NCBI GenBank assembly: GCA_051984555.1
Contig: JBPYEW010000225.1
Location: forward strand, 12,626 to 76,625
Direction of reading: 5' to 3'
DNA: 64,000 nucleotides
From: Terriglobales bacterium
Lineage (GTDB): Bacteria; Acidobacteriota; Terriglobia; Terriglobales; Acidobacteriaceae
Part shown: positions 3,486 to 18,044 of the stretch, in pieces
Numbering within the stretch: position 1 is the first letter of the stretch
How the letters are laid out: the number at the start of each line of letters is the position of its first letter
Program-made: the position numbers and the translations under genes
The notes under the pieces: model-generated
Told to the model about the DNA's origin: nothing
The model's database searches: none
What the model saw: the letters and a program-made list of their open reading frames with translations, nothing else

Positions 3486-3575
3486 GGAGGGATGCGTGAG
3501 CGGTCGAAACGGGTGGTCTTGAAAACCACTGTACCCGGAAGGGTACCGGGGGTTCGAATCCCTCTCCCTCCGCCA
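3486..3575 (+). tRNA. tRNA-Ser (anticodon UGA), 90 nt, CCA encoded
   Basis: Manual cloverleaf. The acceptor stem is GGAGGGA/TCCCTCC with discriminator G and CCA. The anticodon stem is GTGGT/ACCAC with loop CTTGAAA. There is a long variable arm (GTACCC-GGAA-GGGTAC) and a T-loop GGTTCGAATCC. The GEGFEPP artefact appears in the antisense ORF 3469-3663. Confidence 0.9.
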
Positions 3576-4031: not shown

Positions 4032-4553
4032 CTATTCAGCCTTTACGATAGCGCCGCAGGCGACTCGATCACCCGCATTCCCCGCTGGATCGCTCTTCAT
4101 GTCATCCGGCTTCGCGTGAATGACCAGTGCGGTGCCGCCATTTGCGAACACCGAGTTTGCGCCCTTTCCTAAGCTGACACTCGGATTATCGACCGTCACG
4201 TGCGCTTTTCCCGTGTGCTGCACGAGGAAGTTATCCATGTCACCCGCGTGATGCCCGTCAGGGTTGTTGAGCCCGTGCTTCTTTCCTTCGGGATTGAAAT
4301 GCGGCCCCGCCGATTTGAAATCAGGTGGATCACACTTGGCGTTTTGATGGATATGTATTGCGTGTTCTCCCGGCTGGACACCTTGCAACTTGAGCTTGAT
4401 CCGGATGCCCTCGCCGTGTTGGGTGATAGTGGCGTTACCCACCTTGTTGCCTTCGGCATCTCGCAGCTCGACCCTTGCTTCGACGAACGCATTTGCCAGC
4501 AGCGTCCCGCCAATTAACATTCCGAGCAGAAGAAAGAAACGGAGATTTCCCAT
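4032..4553 (-). CDS. sodC: Periplasmic Cu/Zn superoxide dismutase
   Basis: Metal-ligand motifs HAIHIHQNAKCD, GPHFNP, GHHAGDMDNF and RVACGAI are present. I set the start at the internal ATG 4553 (MGNLRFFLLLGMLIGG signal peptide). The upstream part of ORF 4032-4805 overlaps cysH in another frame. Confidence 0.9.
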   Translation of the reverse strand: MGNLRFFLLLGMLIGGTLLANAFVEARVELRDAEGNKVGNATITQHGEGIRIKLKLQGVQPGEHAIHIHQNAKCDPPDFKSAGPHFNPEGKKHGLNNPDGHHAGDMDNFLVQHTGKAHVTVDNPSVSLGKGANSVFANGGTALVIHAKPDDMKSDPAGNAGDRVACGAIVKAE

Positions 4554-4612
4554 GCGCCAAATTATAGACGGAGCCTTCGCCGGCGCTGGCCGCTTTCTGT
4601 TCTTCTGGAAGA

Positions 4613-5326
4613 TCAGACTCTGTCCGCGGCTGCCGGGCTGATCACGTGCAGGCCGCACTCGGTTTTCGTGAATCCCGACCACCGCCCGGCTCTGGGATCC
4701 TCGCCCGGCCCGACGGCGCGCGTGCAATGCGTGCAACCAATACTCGGATAACTCTGGTCGTGTAGGGGATTGTAGAGAACCTTGTGCTGATGGATGTAGT
4801 TCCAAACCTGTTTATCGCTCCAGTCGGCCAGCGGATTGATTTTAATCAGGCCAAACTTTGCGTCCCAACTGATCTTGCGCGCACTCGCCCTCTGGGCTGT
4901 CTGATCCCGGCGAATACTGCTGATCCAGGCACGCAGGTGGCTCAATTTTCTCCGCAGCGGCTCGACTTTACGAATCTCGCAGCACTGGTCAGGATTTCGG
5001 GTCCACAACGCAGCTCCGTGAAGGCGCTCCTGTTCCTCCGGCGAGAGTAGCGGGCACATCCTTTCGATCTTGATCCCGTAGCGTTCTTCCACCTGATCGA
5101 TCAGGTTGTACGTCTCGGGAAAGAAAAACTCTGTATCAACCGTAAACACACGGAACTTGTGGGTGACTTTCGACGCGAGATCAATCGTCACCATGCCTTC
5201 AACCCCAAAGGCGGAAGAGATTGCCACATCATTCCCAAAGGTATGAAACGCCCAACGCAACACTTGATCGGCTGTCCACGATTCGGCTGCTGACTGCACT
5301 TCTTCCATTGACGTTTGAGGGCTCAC
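4613..5326 (-). CDS. cysH: Adenylyl-sulfate/phosphoadenylyl-sulfate reductase (thioredoxin-dependent, Fe-S type)
   Basis: PAPS-reductase fold with the CC...CxxC Fe-S ligands (QCCEIRKVEPL, GCTHCT) and the C-terminal catalytic ECGLH. Its start overlaps the stop of the upstream methyltransferase gene. Confidence 0.9.
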   Translation of the reverse strand: MSPQTSMEEVQSAAESWTADQVLRWAFHTFGNDVAISSAFGVEGMVTIDLASKVTHKFRVFTVDTEFFFPETYNLIDQVEERYGIKIERMCPLLSPEEQERLHGAALWTRNPDQCCEIRKVEPLRRKLSHLRAWISSIRRDQTAQRASARKISWDAKFGLIKINPLADWSDKQVWNYIHQHKVLYNPLHDQSYPSIGCTHCTRAVGPGEDPRAGRWSGFTKTECGLHVISPAAADRV

Positions 5327-6129
5327 GACACTATTTCCTCGTTCTCTTTCTGCTGATAAAGAAAGTCAGCGGGCATCGGATGGCGTTCGGCCACAGCGGC
5401 GTACTCTTGCAACTGATCGGCGCGCGCGAACCGGACCACCTCGCCAACCACCAGCAGTGTTGGTCCAGCGAGACGCGGTGCACGATGTAATTCGCCCACG
5501 GTTGTCGCGTAAATTTGCTGTCGTGGAGTCGTCGCTCGCGACACGATGGCGCACGTGGTTTCGTGCTTCGCACCTGCCGCTCGCAAGCGTGCAGCAACGG
5601 CCGCATATTGATGGCCGGGCATGTAGATCACCAGCGTCGCCCCACTCGTCATGAACTTTCGCCAATCTGTATCTTCGTTGTCGGGAGCACGATGACCGGT
5701 CAGCAGGATCACCGCTGGTGAAGCATCCCGGTGTGTCAGCGGGATCTCCGCGATCGCAGCTGCTCCAAAGGCCGAGGTCACGCCCGGTACGATCTCGTAT
5801 TCGATCTTCGCGGCACGCAGTGCTTCAATCTCTTCTGCTATCCGCCCAAAAATCAGCGGATCGCCACTCTTCAGGCGCACGACCTGTAGACCTGAAGCAG
5901 CAAGCCCGATCATGAGGAAGTTGATCTCCGGCTGCGTGATCTTCTTTTTGCCGCAAAGTTTGCCGACATTGTGAATTTGAGCGAAAGGCGAAACCAGTTT
6001 CAGAACTTCCGGTGAGACCAATTCGTCGTGAAGAACCGCCTCCGCATGTTTCAACAGGCGTGCCGCTTTGACCGTCAGCAGATCAGGGTCGCCTGGGCCG
6101 GCTCCCACAAGAAAAACTTTGCCGGTCAT
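5323..6129 (-). CDS. cobA: Uroporphyrinogen-III C-methyltransferase (siroheme branch)
   Basis: N-terminal FLVGAGPGDPDLLTVKA SAM-binding motif and tetrapyrrole methylase length. It overlaps both neighbouring genes by 4 nt. Confidence 0.9.
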   Translation of the reverse strand: MTGKVFLVGAGPGDPDLLTVKAARLLKHAEAVLHDELVSPEVLKLVSPFAQIHNVGKLCGKKKITQPEINFLMIGLAASGLQVVRLKSGDPLIFGRIAEEIEALRAAKIEYEIVPGVTSAFGAAAIAEIPLTHRDASPAVILLTGHRAPDNEDTDWRKFMTSGATLVIYMPGHQYAAVAARLRAAGAKHETTCAIVSRATTPRQQIYATTVGELHRAPRLAGPTLLVVGEVVRFARADQLQEYAAVAERHPMPADFLYQQKENEEIVS

Positions 6130-6743
6130 GCCGCCCCTCCCTGGTTCTCGGAAGATTGGCGTAAGAGTTCGGCCTCGAGCGCCGCGCGGCTAGCCAGCGA
6201 CTGCAACAAATTCCTTTTTCGTTCCTGGGGCAAATTCGACTTGAGTATCTCGCGCCGCGTTTCCCCCAACTCCGCCACCCACGTCTCGTACGCGGGACCA
6301 AACTGCTGCTCTAGTTGCTGCCGAATGCGCTGCGCCAGTGACGGACTCTGTCCCGAAGTCGAGATCGCGATTTGCAGGTCACCTCTCTTGACCACGGCCG
6401 GATAGTAAAAATCACACTGCGGGGGCACATCTACGACATTGCATAGAATTCGTCGCTCCTGCGCGTCCGCATACACTCGTTCGTTCAACTCGCGATCCGA
6501 CGTGGCGACGATGACCAGGAATGCGCGCTCGAGGTCTGCCGTTTCGTAACCACGCTCTTCCAGCTGAACCATTGCTGATTTCGCCCACTGCTTGACGAGA
6601 TCTGCCGCGTGTAGCGCAACAACCCGGACCTTCGCACCCGTTCCAAGGAGACCTGCAATCTTTTGCTCACCGATTTTGCCGGCCCCGACGACCAGTACCT
6701 CTCGCCCGTCGAGTTTCACGAATATTGGGAGCAGGCTTTTCAT
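6126..6743 (-). CDS. Precorrin-2 dehydrogenase / sirohydrochlorin ferrochelatase (CysG N-terminal domain type)
   Basis: Rossmann motif VLVVGAGKIGEQK. At 205 aa it has the typical SirC/Met8 size. It sits between the sulfite reductase and cobA genes. Confidence 0.85.
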   Translation of the reverse strand: MKSLLPIFVKLDGREVLVVGAGKIGEQKIAGLLGTGAKVRVVALHAADLVKQWAKSAMVQLEERGYETADLERAFLVIVATSDRELNERVYADAQERRILCNVVDVPPQCDFYYPAVVKRGDLQIAISTSGQSPSLAQRIRQQLEQQFGPAYETWVAELGETRREILKSNLPQERKRNLLQSLASRAALEAELLRQSSENQGGAA

Positions 6744-6746
6744 CGG

Positions 6747-8450
6747 TTATCCCTCCAGTCCGTGAGGCACGCGGCCAGGAGAAATATCTCGCGGAACTGC
6801 TTCCACCAGAGATCCGGCGAGAAATTCGCGAAGATTGTCGTTGTTATGCCGGCTGAAGAACTGCCGCAGGTTCTCGCCGTAGTGGCGGTCTTCCAGGTAC
6901 CGCCGCAGCAGCCGCTCGATGGCATCCGGAACTTCGCTGGCCGGGCATCGGTACCCAACCGGTCTGGCGAAACCCTGGTTCAGTCCGACTGCACCACCTA
7001 GGCAAAAGTAGTAAGCGTCCACCATCCGGCCATCGAGCTTGATCTTTTTTCCCTCGATGCCAATGTCAGCGATCCAGTGTTGCCCGCAACTGTTCGGGCA
7101 CCCCGTTACATGTAGCTTGAGGTCCTGGTCAAAACCCGGCATCCGTTCTTCGAGTTCTTCCACCAACCAGCGCGAAAAACTCTTGGTCTCGGTGATAGCA
7201 AGCTTGCAGAACTCCGCTCCACTGCATGCAATGGCTCCACGCCAGAATGGTGATCCGTCAGTTCGCAAACCAATGGCGTCGAGTTCCTTGGCCAATGCGT
7301 TCGCCTGTGTTCTCGGCACGTTGACGATCACCAGGTTTTGCATGGCGGTCGTCCGGAGTTGCCCGTCGGCAAAGCGGTCGGCAAGCTCTGCCGCAGCACG
7401 CATCTGTTCAGAATTGATTCGTCCGCGCAAGACTGCCGCGCCGACATAACTGAGGCCAGCCTGTTTCTGTGGATGGATTCCAACGTGATCCCGATAAACA
7501 TCGTCGGGCGCTTCTTCGGGAGCAGCCGGATCGAGGGTGAAACCAATACGTTCCTGCAACGAACTAAGAAAATTATCGGCGGTCCATCCGTGTCGCAGGA
7601 ACAAGAACTTCAACCTTGCGCGTTCCCGGTGCTCTCGCAGTTGTTCGGAATCGCGAAAGATCTCTGCAATCCCTTTCACTACCGGAAGCACTTGATCTGG
7701 CCGAACAAATGCATTCAACTGAGTGGCGAAGAATGGTTCGGCCGATAGGCCCCCGCCCACGCGCAGCGAGAATCCGGTTTCGCGCCGCCCGCCCACTTCA
7801 CGCGTGAGGGCAGTCAGGCCGATGTCGTTGATTTCCGGATAGGCACACCACACGCGGCAGCCGGTGATCGAAATTTTGAATTTGCGGGGAAGGTTGTAGA
7901 ACTCCGCATTCCCCATCAACGCTTGATTGATCCCCAACGCCAAGGGAGATGCGTCACAAATTTCTTCAGCATCGATTCCAGCAAGCGGGCAGCCTGTAAC
8001 GTTTCGAGTTACGTCGCCGCAAGCGCCAAGCGTGTTCAGACCCACTCGTCCCAGCGCTTCGAGAACTTCGGGGAGGGCTTCGATGCTGATCCAGTGCAGC
8101 TGGATATTCTGGCGAACTGTTAGGTCGCCAATATTGCGGGCATAGTTCTGAGTAAGATCGGCGATGGTTCGCAATTGGACCGAGTTCAACATCCCGTTCG
8201 GGACGCGGATGCGAACCATGAAGTAGGGCAGCGCTTTGCCTTCGCCCCCTTTGCCGCCGAGAACGCCGGCTCCGTCCCCCTGCGTGTAAACGCCCCACCA
8301 GCGGAAATAGGTGCCGATCCACTCCGGCGGAATAGCGGAGAAACCTTCGCGCGCGAAGCGTCGAATCTCACCCAAGCCTTCCCACGGATTCTTCTCGCGC
8401 TTGAGCCGCTCGACTCTTTGTGCTTTCGTCTCTTGGATTGTGTTTGCCAT
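6747..8450 (-). CDS. sir: Ferredoxin-dependent sulfite (nitrite/sulfite family) reductase hemoprotein
   Basis: 567 aa. The siroheme-[4Fe-4S] Cys cluster is present (ACSGAEFCKLA and TGCPNSCGQHWIADIG). The duplicated NIR_SIR ferredoxin-like halves are visible. Confidence 0.9.
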   Translation of the reverse strand: MANTIQETKAQRVERLKREKNPWEGLGEIRRFAREGFSAIPPEWIGTYFRWWGVYTQGDGAGVLGGKGGEGKALPYFMVRIRVPNGMLNSVQLRTIADLTQNYARNIGDLTVRQNIQLHWISIEALPEVLEALGRVGLNTLGACGDVTRNVTGCPLAGIDAEEICDASPLALGINQALMGNAEFYNLPRKFKISITGCRVWCAYPEINDIGLTALTREVGGRRETGFSLRVGGGLSAEPFFATQLNAFVRPDQVLPVVKGIAEIFRDSEQLREHRERARLKFLFLRHGWTADNFLSSLQERIGFTLDPAAPEEAPDDVYRDHVGIHPQKQAGLSYVGAAVLRGRINSEQMRAAAELADRFADGQLRTTAMQNLVIVNVPRTQANALAKELDAIGLRTDGSPFWRGAIACSGAEFCKLAITETKSFSRWLVEELEERMPGFDQDLKLHVTGCPNSCGQHWIADIGIEGKKIKLDGRMVDAYYFCLGGAVGLNQGFARPVGYRCPASEVPDAIERLLRRYLEDRHYGENLRQFFSRHNNDNLREFLAGSLVEAVPRDISPGRVPHGLEG

Positions 8451-8492
8451 AAAAATGAAAAACCCACCGCCAAATTGCTCTGGCGATGGGTT
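8451..8492 (-). terminator. Intrinsic terminator/attenuator hairpin immediately upstream of the sir start codon
   Basis: The minus-strand RNA reads AACCCAUCGCCA-GAGCAAUU-UGGCGGUGGGUU, a 12-bp stem with one G-U pair. It is followed by UUUUUCAUUUUU and then directly by the ATG at 8450. Confidence 0.7.
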
Positions 8493-8517
8493 TATGAGTG
8501 CTGAGATTACTAATTTA

Positions 8518-8613
8518 CTAAGTTAGCAGCCTCCCCGCGCCAGAACGCACGTATGCGCGACAACAACATGCGCACATACACATGGTCCGGCGAGTCTGGC
8601 TGCACAACGTCAT
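8518..8613 (-). CDS. Candidate Cys-rich leader peptide (31 codons) of the sulfur-assimilation operon
   Basis: Own translation gives ATG ACG TTG TGC ... TAG = MTLCSQTRRTMCMCACCCRAYVRSGAGRLLT. It has six Cys codons, five of them within seven codons. It lies between a promoter-like element and the attenuator hairpin. No clear Shine-Dalgarno is present, so it may be leaderless. Confidence 0.5.
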   Translation of the reverse strand: MTLCSQTRRTMCMCACCCRAYVRSGAGRLLT

Positions 8614-8622
8614 AGGCACATG

Positions 8623-8651
8623 ATCCTATAGGCCACAACAAATCTCGTCAA
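8623..8651 (-). promoter_or_regulatory. Sigma-70-like promoter candidate for the leader/sir operon
   Basis: On the minus strand, TTGACG (8646-8651), a 17-nt spacer and TAGGAT (8623-8628). The leader ATG lies 9 nt downstream of the -10 element. Confidence 0.35.
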
Positions 8652-8812
8652 CAAACCGTTGGATGAATAATTCCGATCAAAAGAATCACAAAAAAGTGAA
8701 CCGTCGAGCCACACGTGTTCTCCCCCCTACAAGCAACCGACTGAAAGTACCGGCGTCCCGCCCGTATTGGCGCAAAAACATAGACAGTCTGTGTTTTGTT
8801 ATCAAAACAAGA

Positions 8813-9913
8813 CTAGGCGAGCGCCGGCAAGGGGCGGATCTGGATAAGCGGCCCATGCTTCTCGCCCTGTTCCCTGAGCAGCATATTCGCCGAGCGAATG
8901 CCAGTCCGCTGGAAAGACTTCTCGCAATCCGCCGTGGACGGACCGCGCATATTACCCTCCATGTAGGCGAGCCCTGGGCACCGCGTACATGTTCCGACAT
9001 GAGAGCAGGTCGAACACACTGGCAGGTCCTTGGCCCGAATCGATCGCACTTGCTCCAACTCAGGCGATCCTCGCCAGATGTCCAGAAACTTCTGGTGCCG
9101 CACATTTCCCGTCGGCAAAGGAAACTGAACGCAGGGAAATACGTCGCCATAAGGTGAGATGTAGCAGGCCGTATGCCCCGCACTGCACGGATATCCTTCC
9201 ATGATGTCCTCACCCGGCGGCGGAGGTGGTGCGCAAAATTCTTCTACATCGCCGACCAGGTCGGAATTCCTGAACACATTCTTCAGTTCCTCGCTCGGAG
9301 GCCTGAGTGCCAGGATGGATGTGTCACCATCAATCTTAGGCGTGATCGTGGGATCGAGCGTATAGTGCACACCTAATTCTTTCGCCAGTGCAATAACTCC
9401 CGCGCCGTCGCCCACATTCTCAGTCATCAGCACATTGGCCATCGTTACCTTGAGCCCCTGGGCTTTCAAGAAACGAATCGCTTCGACCGTATGCTTTAAC
9501 GATCCTGGCAGTTTGGTGATTCCATCATGCACTTCCGCTCGATGGGAATAAACACTGATCTGAATCTGTTCGACGCCCAGTTCGCGGATGCGCCGCGCTT
9601 CCGCTTCGCGAATCATCACCCCGTTGGTTTTGATCTTGACGTTGAACAGTAGTCGGCGCGCGTATGCGACGATCTCCAGGAAATCGCGACGCATGAAGAC
9701 TTCGCCGCCGCTTAGAACCAGGAAGAAAACCCCGGCCTCGGCCAACTGGTCAAGGACGTCCTTGATTTCCGCCGTGGTCATCTCCCCCAAATCATCATGA
9801 TCGAGATAGCAATGCACGCACCGCTCGTTACAGCGGTACGTCACGTCGACGTGAACACTGATCGGCACGCCTAACTCGAGCGCCCGGTAGTTCATCTGCG
9901 ACATCAGGTTCAT
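8813..9913 (-). CDS. Radical SAM / SPASM-domain peptide-modifying enzyme
   Basis: CX3CX2C motif in VDVTYRCNERCVHCY. The C-terminal region is Cys-rich and SPASM-like (CSAGHTACYISPYGDVFPC ... CSTCSHVGTCTRCPG ... DCEKS). It overlaps the upstream PqqD gene by 4 nt. Confidence 0.9.
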   Translation of the reverse strand: MNLMSQMNYRALELGVPISVHVDVTYRCNERCVHCYLDHDDLGEMTTAEIKDVLDQLAEAGVFFLVLSGGEVFMRRDFLEIVAYARRLLFNVKIKTNGVMIREAEARRIRELGVEQIQISVYSHRAEVHDGITKLPGSLKHTVEAIRFLKAQGLKVTMANVLMTENVGDGAGVIALAKELGVHYTLDPTITPKIDGDTSILALRPPSEELKNVFRNSDLVGDVEEFCAPPPPPGEDIMEGYPCSAGHTACYISPYGDVFPCVQFPLPTGNVRHQKFLDIWRGSPELEQVRSIRAKDLPVCSTCSHVGTCTRCPGLAYMEGNMRGPSTADCEKSFQRTGIRSANMLLREQGEKHGPLIQIRPLPALA

Positions 9914-10227
9914 TGCGCCCCCGGAGATGCGGCCGACGATTGTTCGATGGGAGTGTCGGAAACCAGCAGGATGCCATGCTGCGCCAAATCGTTCACGAAC
10001 TGCTCGGCATCCCGGCTGGCGTGTTCCTCGTCGATATCGAATCGCTCACAGATCTTCTGCGAAATGATGGTTGACAGGGGCGTGTGCCCATCCGCTGCTT
10101 GCCAGATTACGGTCGCCACTTCATTGAGCGTAAAGAACGTCGAGTCGGTTACCGACATTACCATCATCTCACCGCCCAGCATACGCGCGGCGATTTGCGT
10201 GCTCCTGGCTATGTATTTCTCTGTCAT
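9910..10227 (-). CDS. PqqD-family peptide chaperone (RiPP recognition element)
   Basis: The start is set at ATG 10227 (MTEKYIARS...), which forms an ATGA overlap with the kinase stop. The PqqD-like core is FFTLNEVATVIWQAADGHTPLSTIISQKICERFDID...FVNDLAQHGIL. Confidence 0.85.
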   Translation of the reverse strand: MTEKYIARSTQIAARMLGGEMMVMSVTDSTFFTLNEVATVIWQAADGHTPLSTIISQKICERFDIDEEHASRDAEQFVNDLAQHGILLVSDTPIEQSSAASPGAQ

Positions 10228-11045
10228 GACTGGCGAATCATCTCCCAAACCCGCTGATCCGGCACAAACGTCAAGCGCTTTACGGGAACGCTGGATACAA
10301 ATTCGCAAGCCGACTGGAACACCATCTTCACGAGTTCGGTGTCTTCCGCGAAGAACAAGATGTTTCGCAACAACAGCCGCGCTGCTTCTTTCACGTCAAT
10401 ATCCTCAACCCTGTTTGCCGGCCCTTTCGCCAGCAAAAACAGAGTCGAGACGGGTGCGGATTGGTTTTCCCCTGGCTTTGCCAGCTCCCCGGAAAACGGC
10501 GTTCCACATGCCCGATAACCGCCGCCCTCGCGGCGAACGTAAGACACCTCATCGGTCAGCAGAGTGACATCAGGCGGGGCTAATCTTGAGATCGTCGTTT
10601 TTCCCGCACCCGAAACTCCCGCGAACAGATACGCGCGTCCTCCACGTATCCCACTAGCCGCATGCAACAGAAAACCACCTTCTTCCGCCAGGATCAACGT
10701 ATGCACAATGCGCAACACCGAATCAATCGCGTACGGGCTGGCAGCTTGCCGTATTCGCCCCAGCGCCGACCTCGCGTCCCACTCCGCCTCAAAATCTCCG
10801 CGCTTCAAGTGCCAGTTTCCGTCGCGAACCTGCACGATCACATTCTCATCCGCGTCCTTGTCCTCCGAGGGCTCAAGGAGCTCGACATCGAACGCATACC
10901 GCGGCTGCTTGGAGTCGCCGATAAACCCGCTGTACCGGCTCTCGAGCATTCGCCGGAATCCTGAGTCCCCAGTGCGCAGTAATATTGGCATCCCGCCAAT
11001 ATCGATGGCCACTCCGGGTCTCTGATCGAGGCCGCTCATGCACAA
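10224..11045 (-). CDS. HPr-kinase-related serine kinase-like protein
   Basis: P-loop context LLHAASGIRGGRAYLFAGVSGAGKTTISRL...LLTDEVSYV resembles the HprK/P C-terminal catalytic domain. An alternative start lies at ATG 11039. It overlaps the end of the peptidase gene. Confidence 0.8.
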   Translation of the reverse strand: MCMSGLDQRPGVAIDIGGMPILLRTGDSGFRRMLESRYSGFIGDSKQPRYAFDVELLEPSEDKDADENVIVQVRDGNWHLKRGDFEAEWDARSALGRIRQAASPYAIDSVLRIVHTLILAEEGGFLLHAASGIRGGRAYLFAGVSGAGKTTISRLAPPDVTLLTDEVSYVRREGGGYRACGTPFSGELAKPGENQSAPVSTLFLLAKGPANRVEDIDVKEAARLLLRNILFFAEDTELVKMVFQSACEFVSSVPVKRLTFVPDQRVWEMIRQS

Positions 11046-11542
11046 TCTTCCTGCGCGGACAATGGATCGGGCTGAACTTCCCGAACCAGGGCGCGCCGCA
11101 ATCGCAATGCAATATTTACTGCAACAGCCGATCGACCTAGGAGCGCCCCTACGATACGATTCATCGGCGAACGCCGGCGCTCAGGCGTAATAGTTCGCCC
11201 TTTCCGCTCGATCAACGTCACTTTTCCAAGGAGTTCCGCTCCTGAAACGGGATCTGCGTGGGTCATCGAGTCTCCACGCGTGCTGAGTGGGTAAGAATTC
11301 CCATCCGCGATCAAAGTGAGTCGGTGAACCCGAAAGCCATCTTCGGCCAAGACCAGAACGATATCCCCGACGCAAATGTCCGCTGCCCGCTTGCTTTCGA
11401 TGCTGAGCACATCTCCCGGCCAAATGGTGGGAAGCATACTGGTCCCTTGCGCTTTCAACCGGATCCGGTTTCCGGAGCGCAGCACGTCGACCGCAAGAGT
11501 GAGCCTTGAGTTCTGGCGAGCCTCGATGGCGGTTACCATCAC
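11036..11542 (-). CDS. S24/S26-fold serine peptidase, signal-peptidase-like (Ser/His type), no N-terminal membrane anchor
   Basis: Ser box GTSMLPTIWPGDVL. VHRL sits where bacterial SPase I has the catalytic Lys (K-R-V/I). TRGDSMTHAD box present. The start is GTG 11542 or ATG 11539. The N-terminus is hydrophilic. Confidence 0.75.
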   Translation of the reverse strand: MMVTAIEARQNSRLTLAVDVLRSGNRIRLKAQGTSMLPTIWPGDVLSIESKRAADICVGDIVLVLAEDGFRVHRLTLIADGNSYPLSTRGDSMTHADPVSGAELLGKVTLIERKGRTITPERRRSPMNRIVGALLGRSAVAVNIALRLRRALVREVQPDPLSAQEDCA

Positions 11543-11549
11543 GCGTGGA

Positions 11550-11726
11550 TTATGAGAACTTCCGGTTGAACCGACATCCTTGCACGGTCGGGTGGATCTT
11601 GCCGCAAGCGAGCGCCATGGTTTCGAAGACCTTTTCGTGCTTGAACTCCGGCTTTTTGTACGGCCGCTTGGGCGTACCCTTCTGGTCAGCGATATTTTCG
11701 CTGGCTTTCTGGTTTTTTTCTCTCAT
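11550..11726 (-). CDS. Candidate RiPP precursor peptide (58 aa)
   Basis: The internal ATG 11726 of ORF 11550-11909 gives MREKNQKASENIADQKGTPKRPYKKPEFKHEKVFETMALACGKIHPTVQGCRFNRKFS. It is the first gene of the operon, and its stop lies 7 nt before the peptidase start. It has a charged leader, a YxxPxF motif, an AxA motif, two Cys and a C-terminal Ser. Confidence 0.6.
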   Translation of the reverse strand: MREKNQKASENIADQKGTPKRPYKKPEFKHEKVFETMALACGKIHPTVQGCRFNRKFS

Positions 11727-11907
11727 ATCTGTCCACACGCCCCCGCCGGGCTGGGCGACGATAAGGTGATGAGGTGCGTTGCCGCTAAGTGTATAACAAC
11801 TATAAAGTTTTGATAAGCAGTAATGTTCCGTCGGATGCACTCGAAGTACACCTTGGATGCCCACTCGCTCATCCCAATCTGTTAACGCGTTCAACCCCGA
11901 ATTCCGC

Positions 11908-12993
11908 ATGCTGCTTGCGTGCTGTCAACATACGTGTCGACGCCCGGAAATCGAACGCCTTGTGGATACCGTCGACTCAACCGTCCTTCTGGAACTTGCC
12001 GAAAAGCACGGGATAATCCCGCAGCTTCACCTCGGCCTCGCCGACTATTCAGCTCGCATTCCTGCCTGGGCGGACTTGCACAGTCTTTTTGAGAAAAATG
12101 CCCGGCGAGCACTTTGGCTTACCCAACTCTTGGAAAAAATCCTGGGTCTGCTGCATTCCCGTGAAATCGACGCTCTGCCCTACAAGGGTCCGGCCCTGGC
12201 ACAAGTCCTGTATGGTGACATCTCCATGCGTCAATACATGGACCTCGATATCCTGGTTCGCACCGCTTGCCTGCCCGCGGCCAACGACGCTTTACGGGAG
12301 ATCGGCCTCTCTCGCCACCTCCAGCTAAATCCGGCCGAAGAACAGGCTTTCGTCGATTCTCACTACGAATACGCTTTCGATGGATTCGGCGCACCCAACA
12401 TCGTCGAACTCCAGTGGCAAATTCTGCCGCGGTTCTACGCGATCGATCTAGAGGTCGAACCACTTTTCGACCGGGCTGTCACCGTTCCGCTCGGCGGGTC
12501 TCATGTGCGCTCTTTGTGCAACGAAGACCTCTTCCTGGTTTTGTGCATTCACGCTGCCAAGCATCTATGGGGACGGCTTTCCTGGATCCTGGACATCGCA
12601 CGACTAGCGGAAAGCGGTTCGATCGATTGGGACACGATCGACAAACGAGTTAAGAGCTTGGGTATAAGCAGGATTGTGGCAGTCTCGTGCGCCCTCGCCC
12701 GTTCGCTATTCGGGACCGAATATCCCGGTTCCACGAGCTTCGCGGTAGATGAAGATGTTGTCCGGTCGATCCTGCAGAGATTGCCGGCCGGCGAGCAACC
12801 CGACACAGAGTCCCCTGGTTATTTCCGTGAGATATTTCGCCTACGCGAGCGACGATCCGACCGCATTCGTTTCGTATTTCGCCTTGTGACCACTCCGAGT
12901 ATCAGCGAATGGAGCGTGGTTCGCCTCCCGCCATCGCTGTTTCCTCTCTATCGGGTCGTGCGGCTATTTCGACTGCTCGGCAAAATCGTCTAA
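11908..12993 (+). CDS. Uncharacterised nucleotidyltransferase family protein (PF14907-like)
   Basis: ORF 11857-12993. I prefer ATG 11908 because it avoids overlap with the divergent precursor region. The N-terminus (LLACC....E...L......W..LL.LA..HG..P.L) and the approximately 360-aa size are typical of this family. It is transcribed divergently from the RiPP operon. Confidence 0.7.
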   Translation: MLLACCQHTCRRPEIERLVDTVDSTVLLELAEKHGIIPQLHLGLADYSARIPAWADLHSLFEKNARRALWLTQLLEKILGLLHSREIDALPYKGPALAQVLYGDISMRQYMDLDILVRTACLPAANDALREIGLSRHLQLNPAEEQAFVDSHYEYAFDGFGAPNIVELQWQILPRFYAIDLEVEPLFDRAVTVPLGGSHVRSLCNEDLFLVLCIHAAKHLWGRLSWILDIARLAESGSIDWDTIDKRVKSLGISRIVAVSCALARSLFGTEYPGSTSFAVDEDVVRSILQRLPAGEQPDTESPGYFREIFRLRERRSDRIRFVFRLVTTPSISEWSVVRLPPSLFPLYRVVRLFRLLGKIV

Positions 12994-13000
12994 TCGGGCG

Positions 13001-13804
13001 TCATTTCGCATTGGCTTTGGCCCGTGCCAGCCCTGCGCGCAATGCCCGCTCAACGATCCGAGCGTGTCCGGCGTCCTCCATCGCTTTAGTCACAGTTGCG
13101 GCAATGCCGCCAGGCGTAGCCGCTTCGTGCAGCAGTTCGTCGAGCGGGATACCGCCCTCCCGCCAAGAAACAACGCCTTCTCCCAAGGCATGGGCCGCGG
13201 CCATCAACGCCGTCTTTCGATCCAAGCCGATCCGCTCGGCCGCCTTCGCCAGCGTCGCCAGCGCGTGATACCCGTGACTGACGGAATATGTGACCGTAAA
13301 TGCATCGAACTTTTTCTCGGAGATTTCCAACACGCTTCCTACTCTTCCGAAGAAATCTCGCACTTCTTCTTTCGCCCGGGTTGGCGTCCCGGGCGGGAAA
13401 GTTAATGCAGTGAGTCCCTTTCCAAAGCGGCAGGTGGGACTCGGCATGGCACGCACCCAGGCGACTCGGCTGCCTAGCTGGCGCCGGAGCTGGCGAAGCG
13501 GGATCCCAGCCGCCACGCTCACGGCAGTCACGGCACGCGGGATATCCTCGATCTCCGACAGCAAGTCCCGCACCGAGTCTGGACGGACGGCAACCATCAG
13601 CAAGCGCCCCGGTGCAACCGCTCGCTGCAGATCTGATTCAGTTTTGACCCCGAATCTTCTCTTCAGTAGACGGAGTTTCTCAGGGTTGCGATCGTAGACC
13701 AGGATCGGTTGGGCATACGATGCTAGCCGCAATCCTGAAATCAACGCAGTCGTGATCCGGCCGCCGCCGAGGAAAACTGTCGCGCTATTCACAGCGAGGC
13801 GCAT
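13001..13804 (-). CDS. Pyrroline-5-carboxylate reductase-like NAD(P)H oxidoreductase
   Basis: N-terminal Rossmann motif VFLGGGRITTALISGL. The C-terminal P5CR dimerisation domain carries TPGGIAATV. It overlaps the upstream aminotransferase gene by 16 nt. Confidence 0.8.
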   Translation of the reverse strand: MRLAVNSATVFLGGGRITTALISGLRLASYAQPILVYDRNPEKLRLLKRRFGVKTESDLQRAVAPGRLLMVAVRPDSVRDLLSEIEDIPRAVTAVSVAAGIPLRQLRRQLGSRVAWVRAMPSPTCRFGKGLTALTFPPGTPTRAKEEVRDFFGRVGSVLEISEKKFDAFTVTYSVSHGYHALATLAKAAERIGLDRKTALMAAAHALGEGVVSWREGGIPLDELLHEAATPGGIAATVTKAMEDAGHARIVERALRAGLARAKANAK

Positions 13805-15132
13805 GCCTCGTCTGCTGCACGGATCAAGGTTTCGACATCGCTTTGCGTGTGAGCGGTGCTGATAATCCAGTGCAGCCCATTGGAAGGCGTCATGTAGATC
13901 CCGCGGCCGAGCAGCGCCTGCACGAAGCGGCTGTACTTCGCGGTATCCACGTACGAGCAGTAGTCGCGGTAGTCTCGTATTTCATCGCGTGCCGTGAAGT
14001 AGATCTGAAACATCGGCCCAAACCCTTGCACTATGGCCTTCAATTTTCGACGCGTGAAGACCTCCCGTAAACCGGCAATGGCGCTATCGCCGATCACATG
14101 CAGTTGCCGGTAGGCCCCGTGGTCGCCCGCAGAAAGCAGGTCGAGATTCGTCGCCACCACCTTCATCGTTAATCGATGTCCGTTAAAGGTCCCGTAATGC
14201 AGAACCATGTGATCGCCCCATCGCATACGGTCGAGAATTGAACGCGAACCTGCGACCGCTCCAATCGGGAACCCGGCGCCAAGAGCCTTTCCGAACGTGC
14301 TGATATCGGGCTTAACTCCGTAGTATTCCTGGCACCCTCCCGGTGCGTAACGGAATCCCGTCACAACTTCATCGAGAACCAGCAAGGCGCCGTACTCCCG
14401 TGTGATCTCTCGTACCTTCTGCAGGTAGCCCTCTTTCGGCAGAATGCAGCCCATGTTCGCCATGATGGGCTCGGTGATCACTGCAGCCAGATCCCGACCG
14501 TGCTGTTCCATCACCCGCTCAAATGCTTCCACATCGTTCCATGGCGTAATCACCACGTCATCGAACGTTGCCGGCGGGATCCCTTCTGAGTCCGGAATAC
14601 GTGCCGGATTTTCACGCGGACCTAACTGTTCCGGCGGATGACTATGTGCATTGAGAAGGTAGGGATCGTACCAGCCGTGATAATGGCCTTCGAATTTCAG
14701 AAATTTTGTCCGACCCGTATGCGCTCGCGCTAACCGCAGCGCCAGCATAGTCGCTTCGCTCCCGGTGTTCGCGAAACGCACGCTTTCCGCCGACGGCACC
14801 ATGCGCTGGAATTTCTCGGCTGCCTCAACTTCCGCTGAAGTGGCTGCCGCAAAGTGCGAACCTTCCGCCACGCTCTCGGACACGACCTGGACGATCCGCG
14901 GGTGCGCGTGGCCTTGGATCAGGGCACCGAACGACATCATGAAATCGACATACTCGTTTGCATCCGCGTCCCACACGTGCGATCCCCGACCGCGCTCCAG
15001 CACGATTGGGCCGCCCGAGTACACCGCCGACCCTCGTGACGGCGAATTCACCCCCTCGACCAGCGTTTGCTGTGCCCGTTCAAACCACTGCCGGGAGCGG
15101 TCCAATTTGCGTGACTCGGTGGTGGAACTCAT
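13789..15132 (-). CDS. Class III PLP aminotransferase (glutamate-1-semialdehyde aminomutase-like)
   Basis: VNSPSRGS, FANTGSEATMLALRLARAHTGR, LVLDEVVTGFR and the PLP-Lys context DISTFGKALGAGFP are all present. Confidence 0.9.
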   Translation of the reverse strand: MSSTTESRKLDRSRQWFERAQQTLVEGVNSPSRGSAVYSGGPIVLERGRGSHVWDADANEYVDFMMSFGALIQGHAHPRIVQVVSESVAEGSHFAAATSAEVEAAEKFQRMVPSAESVRFANTGSEATMLALRLARAHTGRTKFLKFEGHYHGWYDPYLLNAHSHPPEQLGPRENPARIPDSEGIPPATFDDVVITPWNDVEAFERVMEQHGRDLAAVITEPIMANMGCILPKEGYLQKVREITREYGALLVLDEVVTGFRYAPGGCQEYYGVKPDISTFGKALGAGFPIGAVAGSRSILDRMRWGDHMVLHYGTFNGHRLTMKVVATNLDLLSAGDHGAYRQLHVIGDSAIAGLREVFTRRKLKAIVQGFGPMFQIYFTARDEIRDYRDYCSYVDTAKYSRFVQALLGRGIYMTPSNGLHWIISTAHTQSDVETLIRAADEACASL

Positions 15133-15893
15133 CAGTCCGCCGTGCCGCCTCCATCGACCGCCACTGCCGCACCTGTCATGAAAGACGAATCATCTGACGC
15201 CAGAAACAGCACTACCTTGGCAATTTCCTCGGGACTGCCAACTCTTCCCATGGGACGATTGGCCGCGCCGGCCATGTAATCCTCCCAGCGCAGCCCTCGA
15301 AACTGCGCATCCTGCGGCAGCATCGGCGTATCGACGTCTCCCGGGCAAACGCAATTCACGCGAATACCTTGCCTGCCGTGATCAATAGCCATGGCTTTCG
15401 TAAGCAGAACAATGCCCCCTTTCGCGGCACAATACGCCACGGCCTTGTCGCCGCCAACCAGTCCCCAACCCGAACTGTTGTTGACGATCACTCCCCCGCC
15501 CTGCCGGATCATGTGTGGCAGGACATACTTCGACATGAGGAATGTACCTTTCAGGCTGACGTCGATCTGCTCGTCCCATTCTTTTTCCGTGCACTCGATG
15601 GCATCGTGCGCGTAGAAAACACCGGCATTATTGAACAAGATGTCGACTTGACCGAATTTCCTCACGGTCTCTTCCACTACGCGTTGGCAATCTTCGGATC
15701 GGGAAACATCCGTCTTGATGAACAGACTTGAGACAGAATTGCCAATCCTGTCGCTTACTGCTTTGCCCCGATCCAGGTTCCGTCCTGTGATGACAACCTT
15801 GGCGCCCTCTTTCGCAAACAACTCTGCCGTGGCCGCCCCAATTCCAGATGTCCCGCCAGTGATAATCGCGATCTTGTCTTGCAGGCGCATCAC
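15132..15893 (-). CDS. Short-chain dehydrogenase/reductase (SDR)
   Basis: TGGTSGIGAA cofactor motif, NNAG, and catalytic YCAAKGG (YxxxK). Confidence 0.9.
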   Translation of the reverse strand: MMRLQDKIAIITGGTSGIGAATAELFAKEGAKVVITGRNLDRGKAVSDRIGNSVSSLFIKTDVSRSEDCQRVVEETVRKFGQVDILFNNAGVFYAHDAIECTEKEWDEQIDVSLKGTFLMSKYVLPHMIRQGGGVIVNNSSGWGLVGGDKAVAYCAAKGGIVLLTKAMAIDHGRQGIRVNCVCPGDVDTPMLPQDAQFRGLRWEDYMAGAANRPMGRVGSPEEIAKVVLFLASDDSSFMTGAAVAVDGGGTAD

Positions 15894-16684
15894 ACCGACC
15901 CCGCCAGGCCGCCGCCGTCCACGATCAGCGCCGTGCCGGTCACAAACGAAGACGCGCCGCTCGCCAGGTAAAGGGCAGCCTGCGCGATTTCTTCCGGCGT
16001 TCCTACCCGTCCCAACGGTCGTTTGGCTGCCTCGGACAAAAACTTTTCGTCCCCTTCTCCGAGTTGTCGGGCTTCATTGCGCAGCATCGCAGTATCCGTA
16101 TCTCCGGGGCAGATACAGTTCACTCGAATATTCTGCGGCCCATGGTCAACAGCCATCGCTTTCGTAAGCAGGACAACACCGCCTTTGGAAGCGCAGTACA
16201 CCGCCGCTTTCGCACCTCCCGTCAGCCCCCACCCCGAAGCGGTGTTGATGATGACTCCACCACCCTGCTTGGCCATGATCGGTATTGCACACCGGGACAT
16301 CAGGAAGACTGACTTCACATTCACGTCCATCACACGGTCCCAATCATCTTCGCTGAGATCGACGACCGTTGCCCGACGAATAATGCCGGCATTATTGAAC
16401 AGAATGTCCAGCCTCCCGAATTGCTCAAGCGCGTATTCGACTACCTTTTTACAGTCAGAGGTCCTGGTGACATCACACGGGAGGAACCGGGCCCGCTGGC
16501 CGGCGTTCGCGATTTTCTCGATCACCTGCTCGCCACTCGAACGATTGATGTCAGCGACGACAACCGCTGCACCCTCTCGCGCAAATAGCTCTGCCGTGGC
16601 GTGGCCAATACCCGATGCGCCACCGGTAATCAAAGCGACTTTGTCTATAAGCTGCAAGGTAAAACGCGTGGCGTCCAGATCCAC
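15890..16684 (-). CDS. Short-chain dehydrogenase/reductase (SDR)
   Basis: TGGASGIGHA, NNAG and YCASKGG. It overlaps the next SDR gene by 4 nt. Confidence 0.9.
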   Translation of the reverse strand: MDLDATRFTLQLIDKVALITGGASGIGHATAELFAREGAAVVVADINRSSGEQVIEKIANAGQRARFLPCDVTRTSDCKKVVEYALEQFGRLDILFNNAGIIRRATVVDLSEDDWDRVMDVNVKSVFLMSRCAIPIMAKQGGGVIINTASGWGLTGGAKAAVYCASKGGVVLLTKAMAVDHGPQNIRVNCICPGDTDTAMLRNEARQLGEGDEKFLSEAAKRPLGRVGTPEEIAQAALYLASGASSFVTGTALIVDGGGLAGSV

Positions 16685-16692
16685 TATGCTGG

Positions 16693-17295
16693 CTACTTAA
16701 TGGTCTCGGCTGTTACAGATCCGCAATCTGCGAGTGTTTCCGTTACAGTTCCTTTTTCCGCAACTGTATTTTCGAATTCCTCGATCTTGTTCATCAAAAG
16801 AATCAACGCACTGGGGTACCGAGCTTTTTCTGTCAACGAGGCTACGTAATACCCTCTCGTTTGTATCTCCTTCTGTGCTCCGTTCTCGGAAAATACTTTC
16901 ATCTTAGAAAGCTCGAAAAAATCTATTGGATTGTGAGGTGGTGCGAAATAAGGCTTCAGTCTACGTACCTGTTTGGATTCCAGAAACTCAGAGAAATCGC
17001 TAATTTGCCATGAGGCGTCATCCGGGAATCGGTACTCTCGTGTCTCTTTCTTTTCAGGGCGAGAAACCTTCCCGCTTTCATCCTGCAGGGCAACGGCGGC
17101 CGTCGACCAAGACGAAAGCAGGACCCTTCCATCCGCGTACAAAGTCAAACAGGATGTGCCCTTTTGACCACCAAGTGGTCCAGAGGAATCCTCATAAACC
17201 GTCAAGATGACTCTGGAAGACTTCTGGGCTGAAACTGGCAAGCCCGCCAATACGAAAATACCCACTGCCCAAAAGCTCGCAGTCGCTTTCATCAC
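16693..17295 (-). CDS. Hypothetical secreted protein embedded in the SDR operon
   Basis: 200-aa ORF with the signal peptide MMKATASFWAVGIFVLAGLPVSAQ. I recognise no domain. It overlaps the upstream SDR stop by 4 nt. Confidence 0.6.
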   Translation of the reverse strand: MMKATASFWAVGIFVLAGLPVSAQKSSRVILTVYEDSSGPLGGQKGTSCLTLYADGRVLLSSWSTAAVALQDESGKVSRPEKKETREYRFPDDASWQISDFSEFLESKQVRRLKPYFAPPHNPIDFFELSKMKVFSENGAQKEIQTRGYYVASLTEKARYPSALILLMNKIEEFENTVAEKGTVTETLADCGSVTAETIK

Positions 17296-18044
17296 CGGCT
17301 CGCCAGCCCCCCCGCCGTCTCCGCGCCATCCGCCGTATAAACGTGGCCTGTCATATAAGCTGCATCGTCCGACGCCAGGAAAGCAAAGAGTGCCGCAATC
17401 TCCTCTGGCTTCGCATGGCGCCGTAGCGGAATCTTTCGATTTACCTCGTCGAGCATCTCGTCGGTGTATTCAGCACGCTGCATGGGCGTAAGCACGTAAC
17501 CTGGTGCCACCGCGCATACCCGAACTTTCGGCGCGAGTTCCAGTGCCATCGACTTTGTCAGCTCGATCACTCCCGCCTTGGTCGCGTTGTAATCCGCGTA
17601 GTACGGATAGCCCATGATCCCGTTGGTCGAAGCTGTTTGCAGGATTACCCCGCCATCATGGTCCATCATGTGCTTGGCGGCTGTCTGGGCCACATTGAAG
17701 ACGCCAGTGAGATTGACGGCGATGACCTTGTCCCATTCTTCCGGAGTTATATCGAGGAACTTGTGCCGGATGCTGATCCCGGCATTGTTCACCACCACAT
17801 CGAGCCCGCCCATCATGCCAACTGCATCGTGAATGGCCGCCTTCACCTGTCTGAGATCGGAAACGTCCGCGTCCACGGTCCCGGCCAGATCCGCCAGTTG
17901 GCGCCGAATTCGCTCGCGGCCTTTCTCGTCGCGGTCAAGCACGCACACCGAGGAGCCTTCCTGCAGGAAGCGAGCTGCCGTCGCCGCCCCAATTCCGCTC
18001 GCGCCTCCCGTAATCAGGACGCGCTTACCTTCCAAACCTCGCAT
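17292..18044 (-). CDS. Short-chain dehydrogenase/reductase (SDR)
   Basis: TGGASGIGAA, NNAG and YNATKAG motifs. Confidence 0.9.
   Translation of the reverse strand: MRGLEGKRVLITGGASGIGAATAARFLQEGSSVCVLDRDEKGRERIRRQLADLAGTVDADVSDLRQVKAAIHDAVGMMGGLDVVVNNAGISIRHKFLDITPEEWDKVIAVNLTGVFNVAQTAAKHMMDHDGGVILQTASTNGIMGYPYYADYNATKAGVIELTKSMALELAPKVRVCAVAPGYVLTPMQRAEYTDEMLDEVNRKIPLRRHAKPEEIAALFAFLASDDAAYMTGHVYTADGAETAGGLASR

Follow-up and report, generated by a model that had tools for sequence, protein, structure and literature searches.

Introduction

Phosphorylated and phosphoglycosylated lasso peptides, such as paeninodin, pseudomycoidin and BsfA, are among the closest described systems to a five-gene cluster that we analyse here on a 64,000-nt stretch of DNA (the window) from a Terriglobales bacterium (contig JBPYEW010000225.1). 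The first gene of this cluster is a short minus-strand open reading frame (ORF) of 58 codons at positions 11550-11726. We show that this ORF is a real gene under purifying selection, and we consider it likely to encode the precursor of an uncharacterised and widely conserved family of ribosomally synthesised peptides with post-translational modifications (RiPPs) of Terriglobia (Acidobacteriota), matured by the four translationally coupled proteins encoded downstream. Although soils are rich in Acidobacteria, these bacteria are hard to culture, and only a few ribosomal natural products from them have been characterised.

In lasso pathways, leaders carry a YxxPxL motif at positions -17 to -12 (PMC10368454), and linear lasso precursors are phosphorylated at their C-terminal Ser by HPr-kinase homologues that depend little on the remaining sequence (PMC8498205). 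The cluster studied here resembles the phosphorylated lasso systems in its Y-x-x-P-x-(L/F) leader motif, its B1-type RiPP recognition element (RRE), its P-loop protein with an HPr kinase/phosphorylase (HPrK/P) fold and the C-terminal Ser of its peptide. The likeness extends to an NTP_transf_5 gene, found in the window, and to an ABC transporter, found in close relatives. However, the Asn-synthetase-like cyclase (C) and the B2 cysteine protease of lasso peptides are absent among the cluster genes, which instead include a radical S-adenosylmethionine (radical-SAM) enzyme with a SPASM domain and an S26-type Ser/His peptidase. Furthermore, core positions 7-9 (T-V-Q) hold no Asp or Glu, position -2 of the proposed A40 site is Leu rather than Thr, Ile or Val, and the leader motif lies at -18/-15/-13 from that site, compared to -17/-14/-12 in lasso leaders. 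A lasso peptide was ruled out, since the two defining enzymes and the acidic ring acceptor residue are missing.

The combination of ScmC-family, PqqD and radical-SAM/SPASM proteins is shared with the SynChlorMet (SCM) cassette (TIGR04248-TIGR04251). The cluster weakly matches the ScmC, ScmD, ScmE and ScmF models, far below their equivalog cut-offs (45.9/125, 27.6/100 and 107/400 bits). While the SCM cassette has two radical-SAM genes (ScmE, ScmF), only one is present here (ScmE 107 bits, ScmF 61.5 bits; cut-offs 400), together with an additional S26-like peptidase and an evident precursor. To our knowledge, no precursor has been identified for the SCM cassette.

Sactipeptide and ranthipeptide pathways (SkfB, AlbA, StsB, PapB) also use an RRE-guided SPASM enzyme on a Cys-containing peptide. 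In contrast to them, the RRE is a separate protein here rather than an N-terminal domain, the peptide has only two Cys and a strongly conserved core, a P-loop protein and an S26-type peptidase are added, and the family scores stay below cut-off. Mycofactocin and pyrroloquinoline quinone (PQQ) pathways share a discrete PqqD, a SPASM enzyme, a dedicated peptidase and a short, highly conserved peptide. Our peptide nevertheless lacks both the C-terminal Gly-Val-Tyr of MftA (it ends in RKFS) and the Glu-x3-Tyr of PqqA, the radical-SAM enzyme scores below the respective cut-offs (265, 381; MftC TIGR03962 137 bits), and MftD/E/F or PqqB/C genes are absent. The sactipeptide/ranthipeptide, mycofactocin and PQQ pathways are therefore resembled only in general logic. 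Finally, endoplasmic reticulum (ER)/archaeal signal peptidases (SEC11, SipW; MEROPS S26B) match the cluster peptidase in Ser (GxSMxP), His (xHRV), GD box and small residues at -3/-1, whereas the enzyme here has no membrane anchor and its substrate no hydrophobic h-region. We take the cluster to encode a RiPP pathway of the radical-SAM kind, unusual in its enzymes and partly lasso-like, with a very conserved, defined precursor.

Results

A short gene under purifying selection

Positions are those of the whole window, and L-numbered loci are related loci in other genomes. The ORF starts at ATG 11726, stops with TAA at 11550-11552 and translates to MREKNQKASENIADQKGTPKRPYKKPEFKHEKVFETMALACGKIHPTVQGCRFNRKFS, identical to the 58-residue sequence of a preliminary description that proposed a precursor peptide here. 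A word-indexed search retrieved 249 homologues of 51-79 aa, nearly all of 51-63 aa. An exhaustive profile search extended the family to 649 clusters (50% identity) at E<=1e-3, of which 267 reach E<=1e-10, and the match nearly always extends to the final residue of the protein. Scanning one genome per species for the sequence pattern located relatives in 194 species, nearly all of them Terriglobia/Acidobacteriota metagenome-assembled genomes (MAGs), with a few Burkholderiales and one bin labelled Lysobacter. Pfam and NCBIfam scans assigned the window peptide to no family, and an NCBIfam scan of 48 family members gave a single chance-level match. We found no description of the family in the openly searchable literature.

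The Y23-F53 segment was compared in 72 distinct DNA versions. Column entropy at codon positions 1/2/3 is 0.57/0.42/1.30 bits, making the third position about three times more variable than the first and second. Invariant residues are encoded by 2-5 synonymous codons: Leu39, for example, appears as CTC, CTG, TTG, CTT and CTA. Together, these patterns demonstrate purifying selection on the 58-aa frame. The frame proposed in the preliminary description is thus the one selected at the protein level, and its claim that the small ORF is real is borne out by hundreds of homologues, by this codon-position signature and by synteny.

Public gene calls of the peptide are inconsistent, giving 58, 110 or 119 aa (window 11550-11909, minus strand), and the peptide seems to be missing from the NCBI source of the identical enzymes. 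In some metagenome records, an ORF on the opposite strand is called in place of the S26-like peptidase gene (L081-L083:9324-9815, minus strand).

The peptide gene is followed by four probable maturation genes

Downstream of the peptide gene and on the same strand lie genes for an S26-like peptidase, a ScmC-type P-loop protein, a PqqD protein and a radical-SAM/SPASM enzyme. Only 7 nt separate the peptide stop from the peptidase start (GTG 11542; the next ATG is at 11539). The three junctions among the four enzyme genes are ATGA start/stop overlaps, indicating translational coupling.

We searched with the window proteins by tblastn and counted synteny over the 80 best related loci. All five genes occur together in 70 of these 80, in two gene orders: most follow the order of the window, while in eight the ScmC-PqqD-radical-SAM genes precede the peptide and peptidase genes. 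The small ORF is thus conserved beside the same four enzyme genes, its Cys and Ser residues are conserved as well (see below), and the codon-position pattern singles out this frame. None of the three findings that the preliminary description named as counting against it was made. A RiPP precursor is generally expected to be a short ORF found beside modifying enzymes across genomes, with an RRE partner and a conserved leader motif; both hold for this family.

In several MAGs the peptide locus is present twice (L007/L010, L002/L030, L058/L076, L057/L068, L061/L073). Either both copies are full clusters, or one is a full cluster and the other an enzyme-free pair of the peptide gene and a gene for a secreted beta-propeller, described below. 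Enzyme-free copies in genomes with a full cluster elsewhere imply maturation in trans.

Conservation delineates a proposed leader, cleavage block and core

Conservation was examined in a close set of 48 homologues and a wide set of 251 distinct members. In the close set, the first ~20 residues are variable, and the consensus beyond them is KRPYxKPxFQHEKVFETMALACGKLxPTQAQCRFNRKNS. The invariant residues are K20, Y23, K25, P26, E31, V33, F34, E35, T36, A38 and L39, followed in the C-terminal part by C41, G42, K43, C51, F53, N54 and S58. F53 and N54 are not strictly invariant in the wider set. Accordingly, the residues singled out in the preliminary description (Y23, P26, A38 and the small residue at 40, both Cys and the terminal Ser) all proved to be conserved. 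Its account of the composition was equally accurate: residues 1-40 contain no Cys, 10 K/R and 6 D/E, and the proposed core begins with Cys41, has Cys51 ten residues further on, carries a net charge of +4 and ends with Ser58.

The spacing between YKKPEF and the FET block is constant in 249 members. In 241 of the 251 members of the wide set the two Cys are 10 residues apart, and in 241 of them 7 residues follow Cys51. At position 40, 96% of the members have a small residue (Ala in 171, Ser in 55, Thr in 14, Gly in one), and 10 have another. The C-terminal residue is Ser in 247 of 251, and the remaining four look truncated or frameshifted. Divergent members have wholly different tails (CQHILKTS, CASLLKAS, CIDVPSAS, CHSHSSRKTS) which all still end in Ser, and because this end is kept although the tail is replaced, the terminal Ser is selected for itself, as the model of the preliminary description requires.

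A lasso-like recognition protein and its probable leader motif

The PqqD protein scores highest in NCBIfam against lasso_PqqD_Bac (39.7 bits; cut-off 80), a model matched by 24 of 24 family members and by more of them than any other PqqD model. Against the Protein Data Bank, the family profile retrieves TbiB1 (5v1u/5v1v, E 2.5e-7), 9x90 and TfuB1 (6jx3), and then PqqD (3g2b, E 0.014). By sequence, the protein is closest to the lasso B1 leader-binding proteins. Since the RRE is lasso-B1-like and lasso leaders carry YxxPxL, the invariant Y-x-x-P followed by F or V is a credible RRE-binding motif. The resemblance of YKKPEF (residues 23-28) to the lasso motif, as put forward in the preliminary description, is thereby strengthened, and this region may well bind the PqqD protein.

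A SPASM enzyme that may cross-link the core

The radical-SAM enzyme has a CNERCVHC motif (CX3CX2C) near its N-terminus, a full C-terminal set of SPASM Cys and no fused RRE. Its NCBIfam scores are all far below cut-off and do not tell the families apart: AhbD 140, NirJ2 140, MftC 137, WgkB 120, GeoRSP 113, ScmE 107 and StsB 104 bits. The nearest solved relatives are the thioether-forming SkfB (E 1.7e-16) and then PqqE. Given the conservation of both Cys and of the distance between them, we favour Cys-based cross-linking as the best guess, and a thioether of the sactionine or ranthionine type, formed at or through the two Cys, would be the most likely outcome.

A ScmC-family protein and the terminal Ser

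The P-loop protein matches TIGR04249 (ScmC) at 45.9 bits compared to a cut-off of 125, HprK_rel_A at 17 bits and, in 26 of 26 family members, PEPCK_ATP at ~19 bits. The Pfam model Hpr_kinase_C gave no match in this protein, and precomputed Pfam annotation places PF27840 (ScmC) on all its homologues. Sequence searches of solved structures with the protein or its profile returned Walker-A matches only and were set aside, so that a fold search was needed. An AlphaFold2 model built from 45 sequences (predicted local distance difference test, pLDDT, 86.6; predicted template-modelling score, pTM, 0.85) was compared by Foldseek. The best match is ATP-dependent phosphoenolpyruvate carboxykinase (PEPCK) (E 1e-8, TM ~0.5 over both domains), and HPrK/P follows with E ~1e-4 over the C-terminal ~150-180 residues. 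Invariant in the family are H128, G143-x-S-G-x-G-K-T-T151 (an intact Walker A) and D165-E166, a set which we take to parallel the His/P-loop/Asp arrangement of HPrK/P.

The protein is likely a phosphotransferase. By analogy with the lasso kinases and given the invariant Ser, its substrate may be the terminal Ser of the peptide, Ser58 in the window. An HPr-kinase-like enzyme acting on a terminal Ser had been proposed before; the Ser end and the PEPCK/HPrK fold agree with this, but the enzyme is of the ScmC family and nearer to PEPCK.

A soluble signal-peptidase homologue

As a single sequence, the S26-like peptidase scores 30.9 bits against Pfam Peptidase_S24 and 32.8 bits against NCBIfam sigpep_I_arch (below cut-off). 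Its matches to BCL6 structures are at chance level and were rejected; the family profile was needed for placement. This profile retrieves human SEC11A/C at E 2e-9 with the catalytic residues aligned, while LexA and UmuD reach ~1e-1. In an alignment of 32 sequences, S35 (GxSMLP), H73-R74 (xHRV) and G90-D91 (TRGD) are invariant. These SEC11-aligned residues identify an ER/archaeal-type (S26B-like) Ser/His enzyme. Of the S26B features, Ser, His and the GD box are present and the membrane anchor is absent: the family has no convincing transmembrane segment (median maximum 19-residue hydropathy 1.08). The leader, in turn, is highly charged and has no hydrophobic h-region (maximum 11-residue hydropathy 0.96). 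Together, these properties suggest a cytoplasmic use of the signal-peptidase fold as leader peptidase, and not secretion. A Sec signal peptide was likewise rejected, since the AxA motif is present without any hydrophobic stretch.

In the preliminary description, Ala-Leu-Ala 38-40 (11607-11615) was read as a type I signal peptidase site served by the peptidase encoded 7 nt downstream. The motif and the neighbouring S26-like gene hold, with the correction that the enzyme is a soluble ER-type one. Moreover, the small-x-small rule is met equally by T36-M37-A38, A38-L39-A40 and A40-C41-G42. With three sites fitting the rule, the 18-residue boundary is only the simplest guess, and cleavage at A-L-A/C would give a core of ~18 residues. 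The unmodified precursor has a calculated monoisotopic mass of 6761.48 Da, and the C-terminal fragment would have 2261.17, 2077.05 or 1917.02 Da if cut after A38, A40 or G42, respectively. The peptidase gene is found in 70 of 70 enzyme-bearing loci and in none of the nine loci with the peptide and propeller genes alone, so it belongs to the maturation module and not to the propeller.

Proposed maturation

From these assignments, a maturation route can be proposed. The B1-like PqqD protein would bind the leader via K-(R/K)-P-Y-x-K-P-x-F and present the C-terminal part to the enzymes. The SPASM enzyme would modify the core at or through the two Cys, the ScmC/HPrK-fold protein would phosphorylate the C-terminal Ser with ATP as lasso-peptide kinases do, and the soluble Ser/His peptidase would bind the VFETMALA strand and cut at a small-x-small site. 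Cleavage would free a cationic peptide of ~18 residues, which the NTP_transf_5 enzyme may decorate further in the window. Radical-SAM modification, Ser58 phosphorylation and the 18-mer product are all predictions from sequence and analogy.

A secreted beta-propeller is encoded next to the peptide in most relatives

By clustering the ORFs of the related loci, we found beside the peptide gene a protein of ~600-650 aa (~620) that begins with a signal peptide and has no Pfam domain. Its AlphaFold2 model (pLDDT 78.5, pTM 0.84) is a BamB/YxaL-like beta-propeller, and the family has >970 homologues, all unnamed. By tblastn, 67 of 80 loci have the propeller gene directly beside the peptide gene, just upstream of it or just downstream of the radical-SAM gene (for example L034:6058-7938 on the plus strand, L008:11137-13074 and L006:8291-10096). 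In one of the eight loci with the alternative gene order, it is inserted before the peptide gene. Spacing can be tight: in L034, the propeller gene ends at 7938 and the peptide gene starts at 7935. In some loci, one peptide gene is accompanied by 2-4 propeller genes in tandem. Of the ten loci without the enzymes, nine retain the peptide and propeller pair, two of them as second copies in genomes with a full cluster elsewhere (L057/L068, L061/L073). No propeller homologue is found within the 64-kb window.

Because the two are co-encoded in most relatives, the role of the peptide may be tied to the propeller, and the tight pairing argues for a conserved role in the cell rather than for a strain-specific antibiotic. 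A precursor of a PQQ-like or cysteine tryptophylquinone (CTQ)-like cofactor for the propeller was considered and rejected, as the core contains neither Tyr nor Trp.

In 19 loci (L081:4197-6836 and equivalents), a multi-PAS hybrid sensor kinase gene, with rpoC beyond it, lies just upstream of the propeller-peptide operon. This kinase is a possible regulator of the module.

Discussion

The case for a RiPP precursor is built on synteny in 70 of 80 loci, invariant motifs, the codon-position test and enzyme assignments that hold under closer scrutiny. Nonetheless, several observations weigh against it. The proposed modifications cannot be read from sequence, three small-x-small sites (after A38, A40 and G42) compete for cleavage, and ~4% of members have V, R, I or N at position 40. 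In structure, the P-loop protein stands closer to PEPCK than to HPrK, and it reaches only 45.9 bits for ScmC, while the radical-SAM enzyme scores higher for AhbD, NirJ2 and MftC (~140 bits) than for sactisynthases (~104 bits). The window has no transporter or immunity gene, the NTP_transf_5 gene occurs in only 9 of 80 loci, and such strong conservation of the core is unusual for an antimicrobial RiPP. A more radical objection is that the 58-aa frame arises by chance, or that the true product is the 119-aa version of some gene callers. The longest ORF in this frame indeed has 119 aa (ATG 11909), 110- or 119-aa versions are annotated in some assemblies, the NCBI record seems to lack the 58-aa product and the Shine-Dalgarno sequence in the window is weak. 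However, the N-terminal extension starts inside the divergent NTP_transf_5 gene and is not conserved among homologues, hundreds of 51-63-aa homologues have a common C-terminus, and the codon-position signature fits the 58-aa frame, so this objection is effectively refuted.

Other alternatives accept the gene and dispute its chemistry or its purpose. In the first group, the radical-SAM enzyme would act at the C-terminus in an oxidative, MftC-like manner or on non-Cys residues, and the ScmC-type protein would be an ATP-dependent scaffold or some other phosphotransferase. This would fit the MftC score (137 bits) and the decarboxylase scores (AhbD and NirJ2, ~140 bits), all above the sactisynthase models, the terminal residue as the most stubbornly conserved feature of the tail, the PEPCK matches, and the fact that ScmC itself is uncharacterised. 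The MftC, AhbD and NirJ2 scores are nonetheless far below their cut-offs, the nearest solved relative by sequence forms thioethers, both Cys are invariant in the close set with their spacing kept in 241 of 251 members, and the His/Walker-A/Asp-Glu set presumably parallels that of HPrK/P. We regard such a different chemistry as unlikely. Far less probable still is that the S26-like enzyme is a dedicated signal peptidase of the secreted propeller, in the style of SipW and TasA, with the A-L-A of the peptide a coincidence. The enzyme is of the ER/SipW type, and the propeller has a Sec-type signal peptide and shares the operon in most loci, but no transmembrane segment is found in the peptidase family, whose members occur in all 70 enzyme loci, including the window and others without a propeller, and are missing from all nine loci with only the peptide and propeller genes. 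On this co-occurrence and the missing membrane anchor, we rejected this candidate. A better contender, though one we hold only tentatively, is that the matured peptide serves as a dedicated partner of the propeller (ligand, small subunit, inhibitor or cofactor source) and not as a free antibiotic-like product. The logic would resemble that of the gamma subunit of quinohemoprotein amine dehydrogenase, which is cross-linked by a radical-SAM enzyme, or of PQQ and mycofactocin, and would leave the status of the ORF as precursor unchanged. It draws on the adjoining genes, on the pairs retained without enzymes, two as second copies, on the tight stop/start spacing in L034, on a core conserved like a structural or physiological molecule, and on the modelled BamB/YxaL-like propeller with its signal peptide. 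On the other hand, the window and 13 of the 80 loci lack a propeller homologue, some loci have several tandem propellers per peptide, a signal peptide is present on the propeller but not on the peptide and those loci have no conserved exporter, the core offers no Tyr or Trp for a quinone cofactor, and the fold match carries no functional information.

Returning to the precursor reading, one could speculate that the family is a new RiPP class with a physiological role, in which a radical-SAM-modified, C-terminally phosphorylated 18-mer would act with a secreted eight-bladed propeller as ligand, small subunit or regulator. Such a class could have arisen from a phosphorylated-lasso cluster in which a SPASM enzyme and a soluble ER-type signal peptidase took over from the cyclase and protease. 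We consider this a minority possibility; if true, ScmC-family proteins would gain from this pathway their first identified kind of substrate.

For soil Acidobacteria, the cluster offers a concrete five-gene pathway with a clearly defined precursor. It mixes lasso-type leader recognition, a ScmC/HPrK-fold protein, a SPASM enzyme and, as leader peptidase, a membrane-free ER-type signal peptidase. Solving its chemistry would give functions to two uncharacterised enzyme families, of interest both to RiPP enzymology and to the biology of Acidobacteria.

Table 1. Positions of the peptide cluster, its sequence elements and neighbouring genes (window coordinates unless a related locus is named)
Feature	Position	Strand	Remarks
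Precursor peptide gene	11550..11726	-	58 aa + stop; leader about residues 1-40, core about 41-58; translation, homologues, codon-position test, synteny
Y23-K-K-P26-E-F28, lasso-like YxxPx(L/F) motif, probable PqqD/RRE binding site	11643..11660	-	Y, P invariant; F or V at 28
V33-F-E-T-M-A-L-A40 block, proposed peptidase recognition and cleavage site	11607..11630	-	V33, F34, E35, T36, A38, L39 invariant
Proposed core C41-GKIHPTVQG-C51-RFNRKF-S58	11553..11606	-	C41, G42, K43, C51 invariant; Ser end 247/251
Soluble ER/archaeal-type S26B-like Ser/His signal-peptidase homologue, putative leader peptidase	11036..11542	-	168 aa
ScmC-family P-loop protein, PEPCK/HPr-kinase fold, putative peptide kinase	10224..11039	-	271 aa; ATG 11039 overlaps peptidase stop (ATGA)
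Discrete PqqD-type RiPP recognition element	9910..10227	-	105 aa; PF05402 57 bits; ATG overlaps ScmC stop (ATGA)
Radical-SAM/SPASM peptide maturase	8813..9913	-	366 aa; PF04055 81 bits, PF13186 SPASM 47.6 bits; ATG overlaps PqqD stop
Divergent intergenic region between peptide and NTP_transf_5 genes, presumably with promoters	11727..11856		130 nt
NTP_transf_5 nucleotidyltransferase-fold protein, accessory, possibly tailoring	11857..12993	+	PF14907 176.6 bits; divergent from peptide
ABC ATPase/ABC-2 permease pair in relatives	L001:6157-7847, L050:6220-7817, L072:6222-7819, L078:6256-7853		
PAPS-reductase-like	4613-5326	-	
Uroporphyrin methyltransferase-like	5323-6129	-	
Siroheme synthase N-terminal domain	6126-6743	-	
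Sulfite reductase	6747-8450	-	

Accessory and flanking genes

We class the NTP_transf_5 gene as accessory because of its rarity among the related loci. Its divergent arrangement with the peptide gene is a minority type, common to the window and five other loci. Four of these relatives have an ABC ATPase and ABC-2 permease pair between the two genes, on the peptide strand and directly upstream of the peptide gene, which argues that at least the product of the NTP_transf_5 sub-type is exported. The window and L003 are without the pair, as if it had been deleted, and no homologue of the pair is found elsewhere in the 64-kb window. The window also has no second copy of the peptide gene. The divergent intergenic region gave no sigma-70-like site in a consensus scan, and promoter and terminator counts as a whole matched those of shuffled controls.

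The flanking genes belong to ordinary metabolism: short-chain dehydrogenases/reductases (SDRs), a hemL-like aminotransferase, a pyrroline-5-carboxylate (P5C)-reductase-like gene and a sulfite reductase/siroheme/cysH group. Beyond the NTP_transf_5 gene, the P5C-reductase-like gene, the hemL-like class-III aminotransferase gene and three SDR paralogues occupy 13001-18044 on the minus strand. Homologues of the aminotransferase, reductase and SDR genes recur by the NTP_transf_5-type loci L001, L050 and L078, reflecting either lineage synteny or an extended cluster.

Directly downstream of the peptide cluster and on its strand lies a set of genes for assimilatory sulfate reduction and siroheme synthesis (4613-8450), a synteny seen only in the window and L001. 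Between the radical-SAM stop and the sulfite reductase start lies a non-coding gap of 362 nt (8451-8812). This gap contains, immediately before the sulfite reductase ATG, a minus-strand hairpin (8460-8493) with a 15-bp stem followed by a T-run, which could be a terminator of the cluster or a leader/attenuator of the sulfur operon. Rfam searches found no RNA family near the cluster or in this gap. Further away, Rfam locates a tRNA gene at 3486-3572 on the plus strand (53.6 bits), and a minus-strand ORF at 4032-4805 looks like a secreted Cu/Zn superoxide dismutase, based on an HxH...GHHAGD motif recognised by eye.

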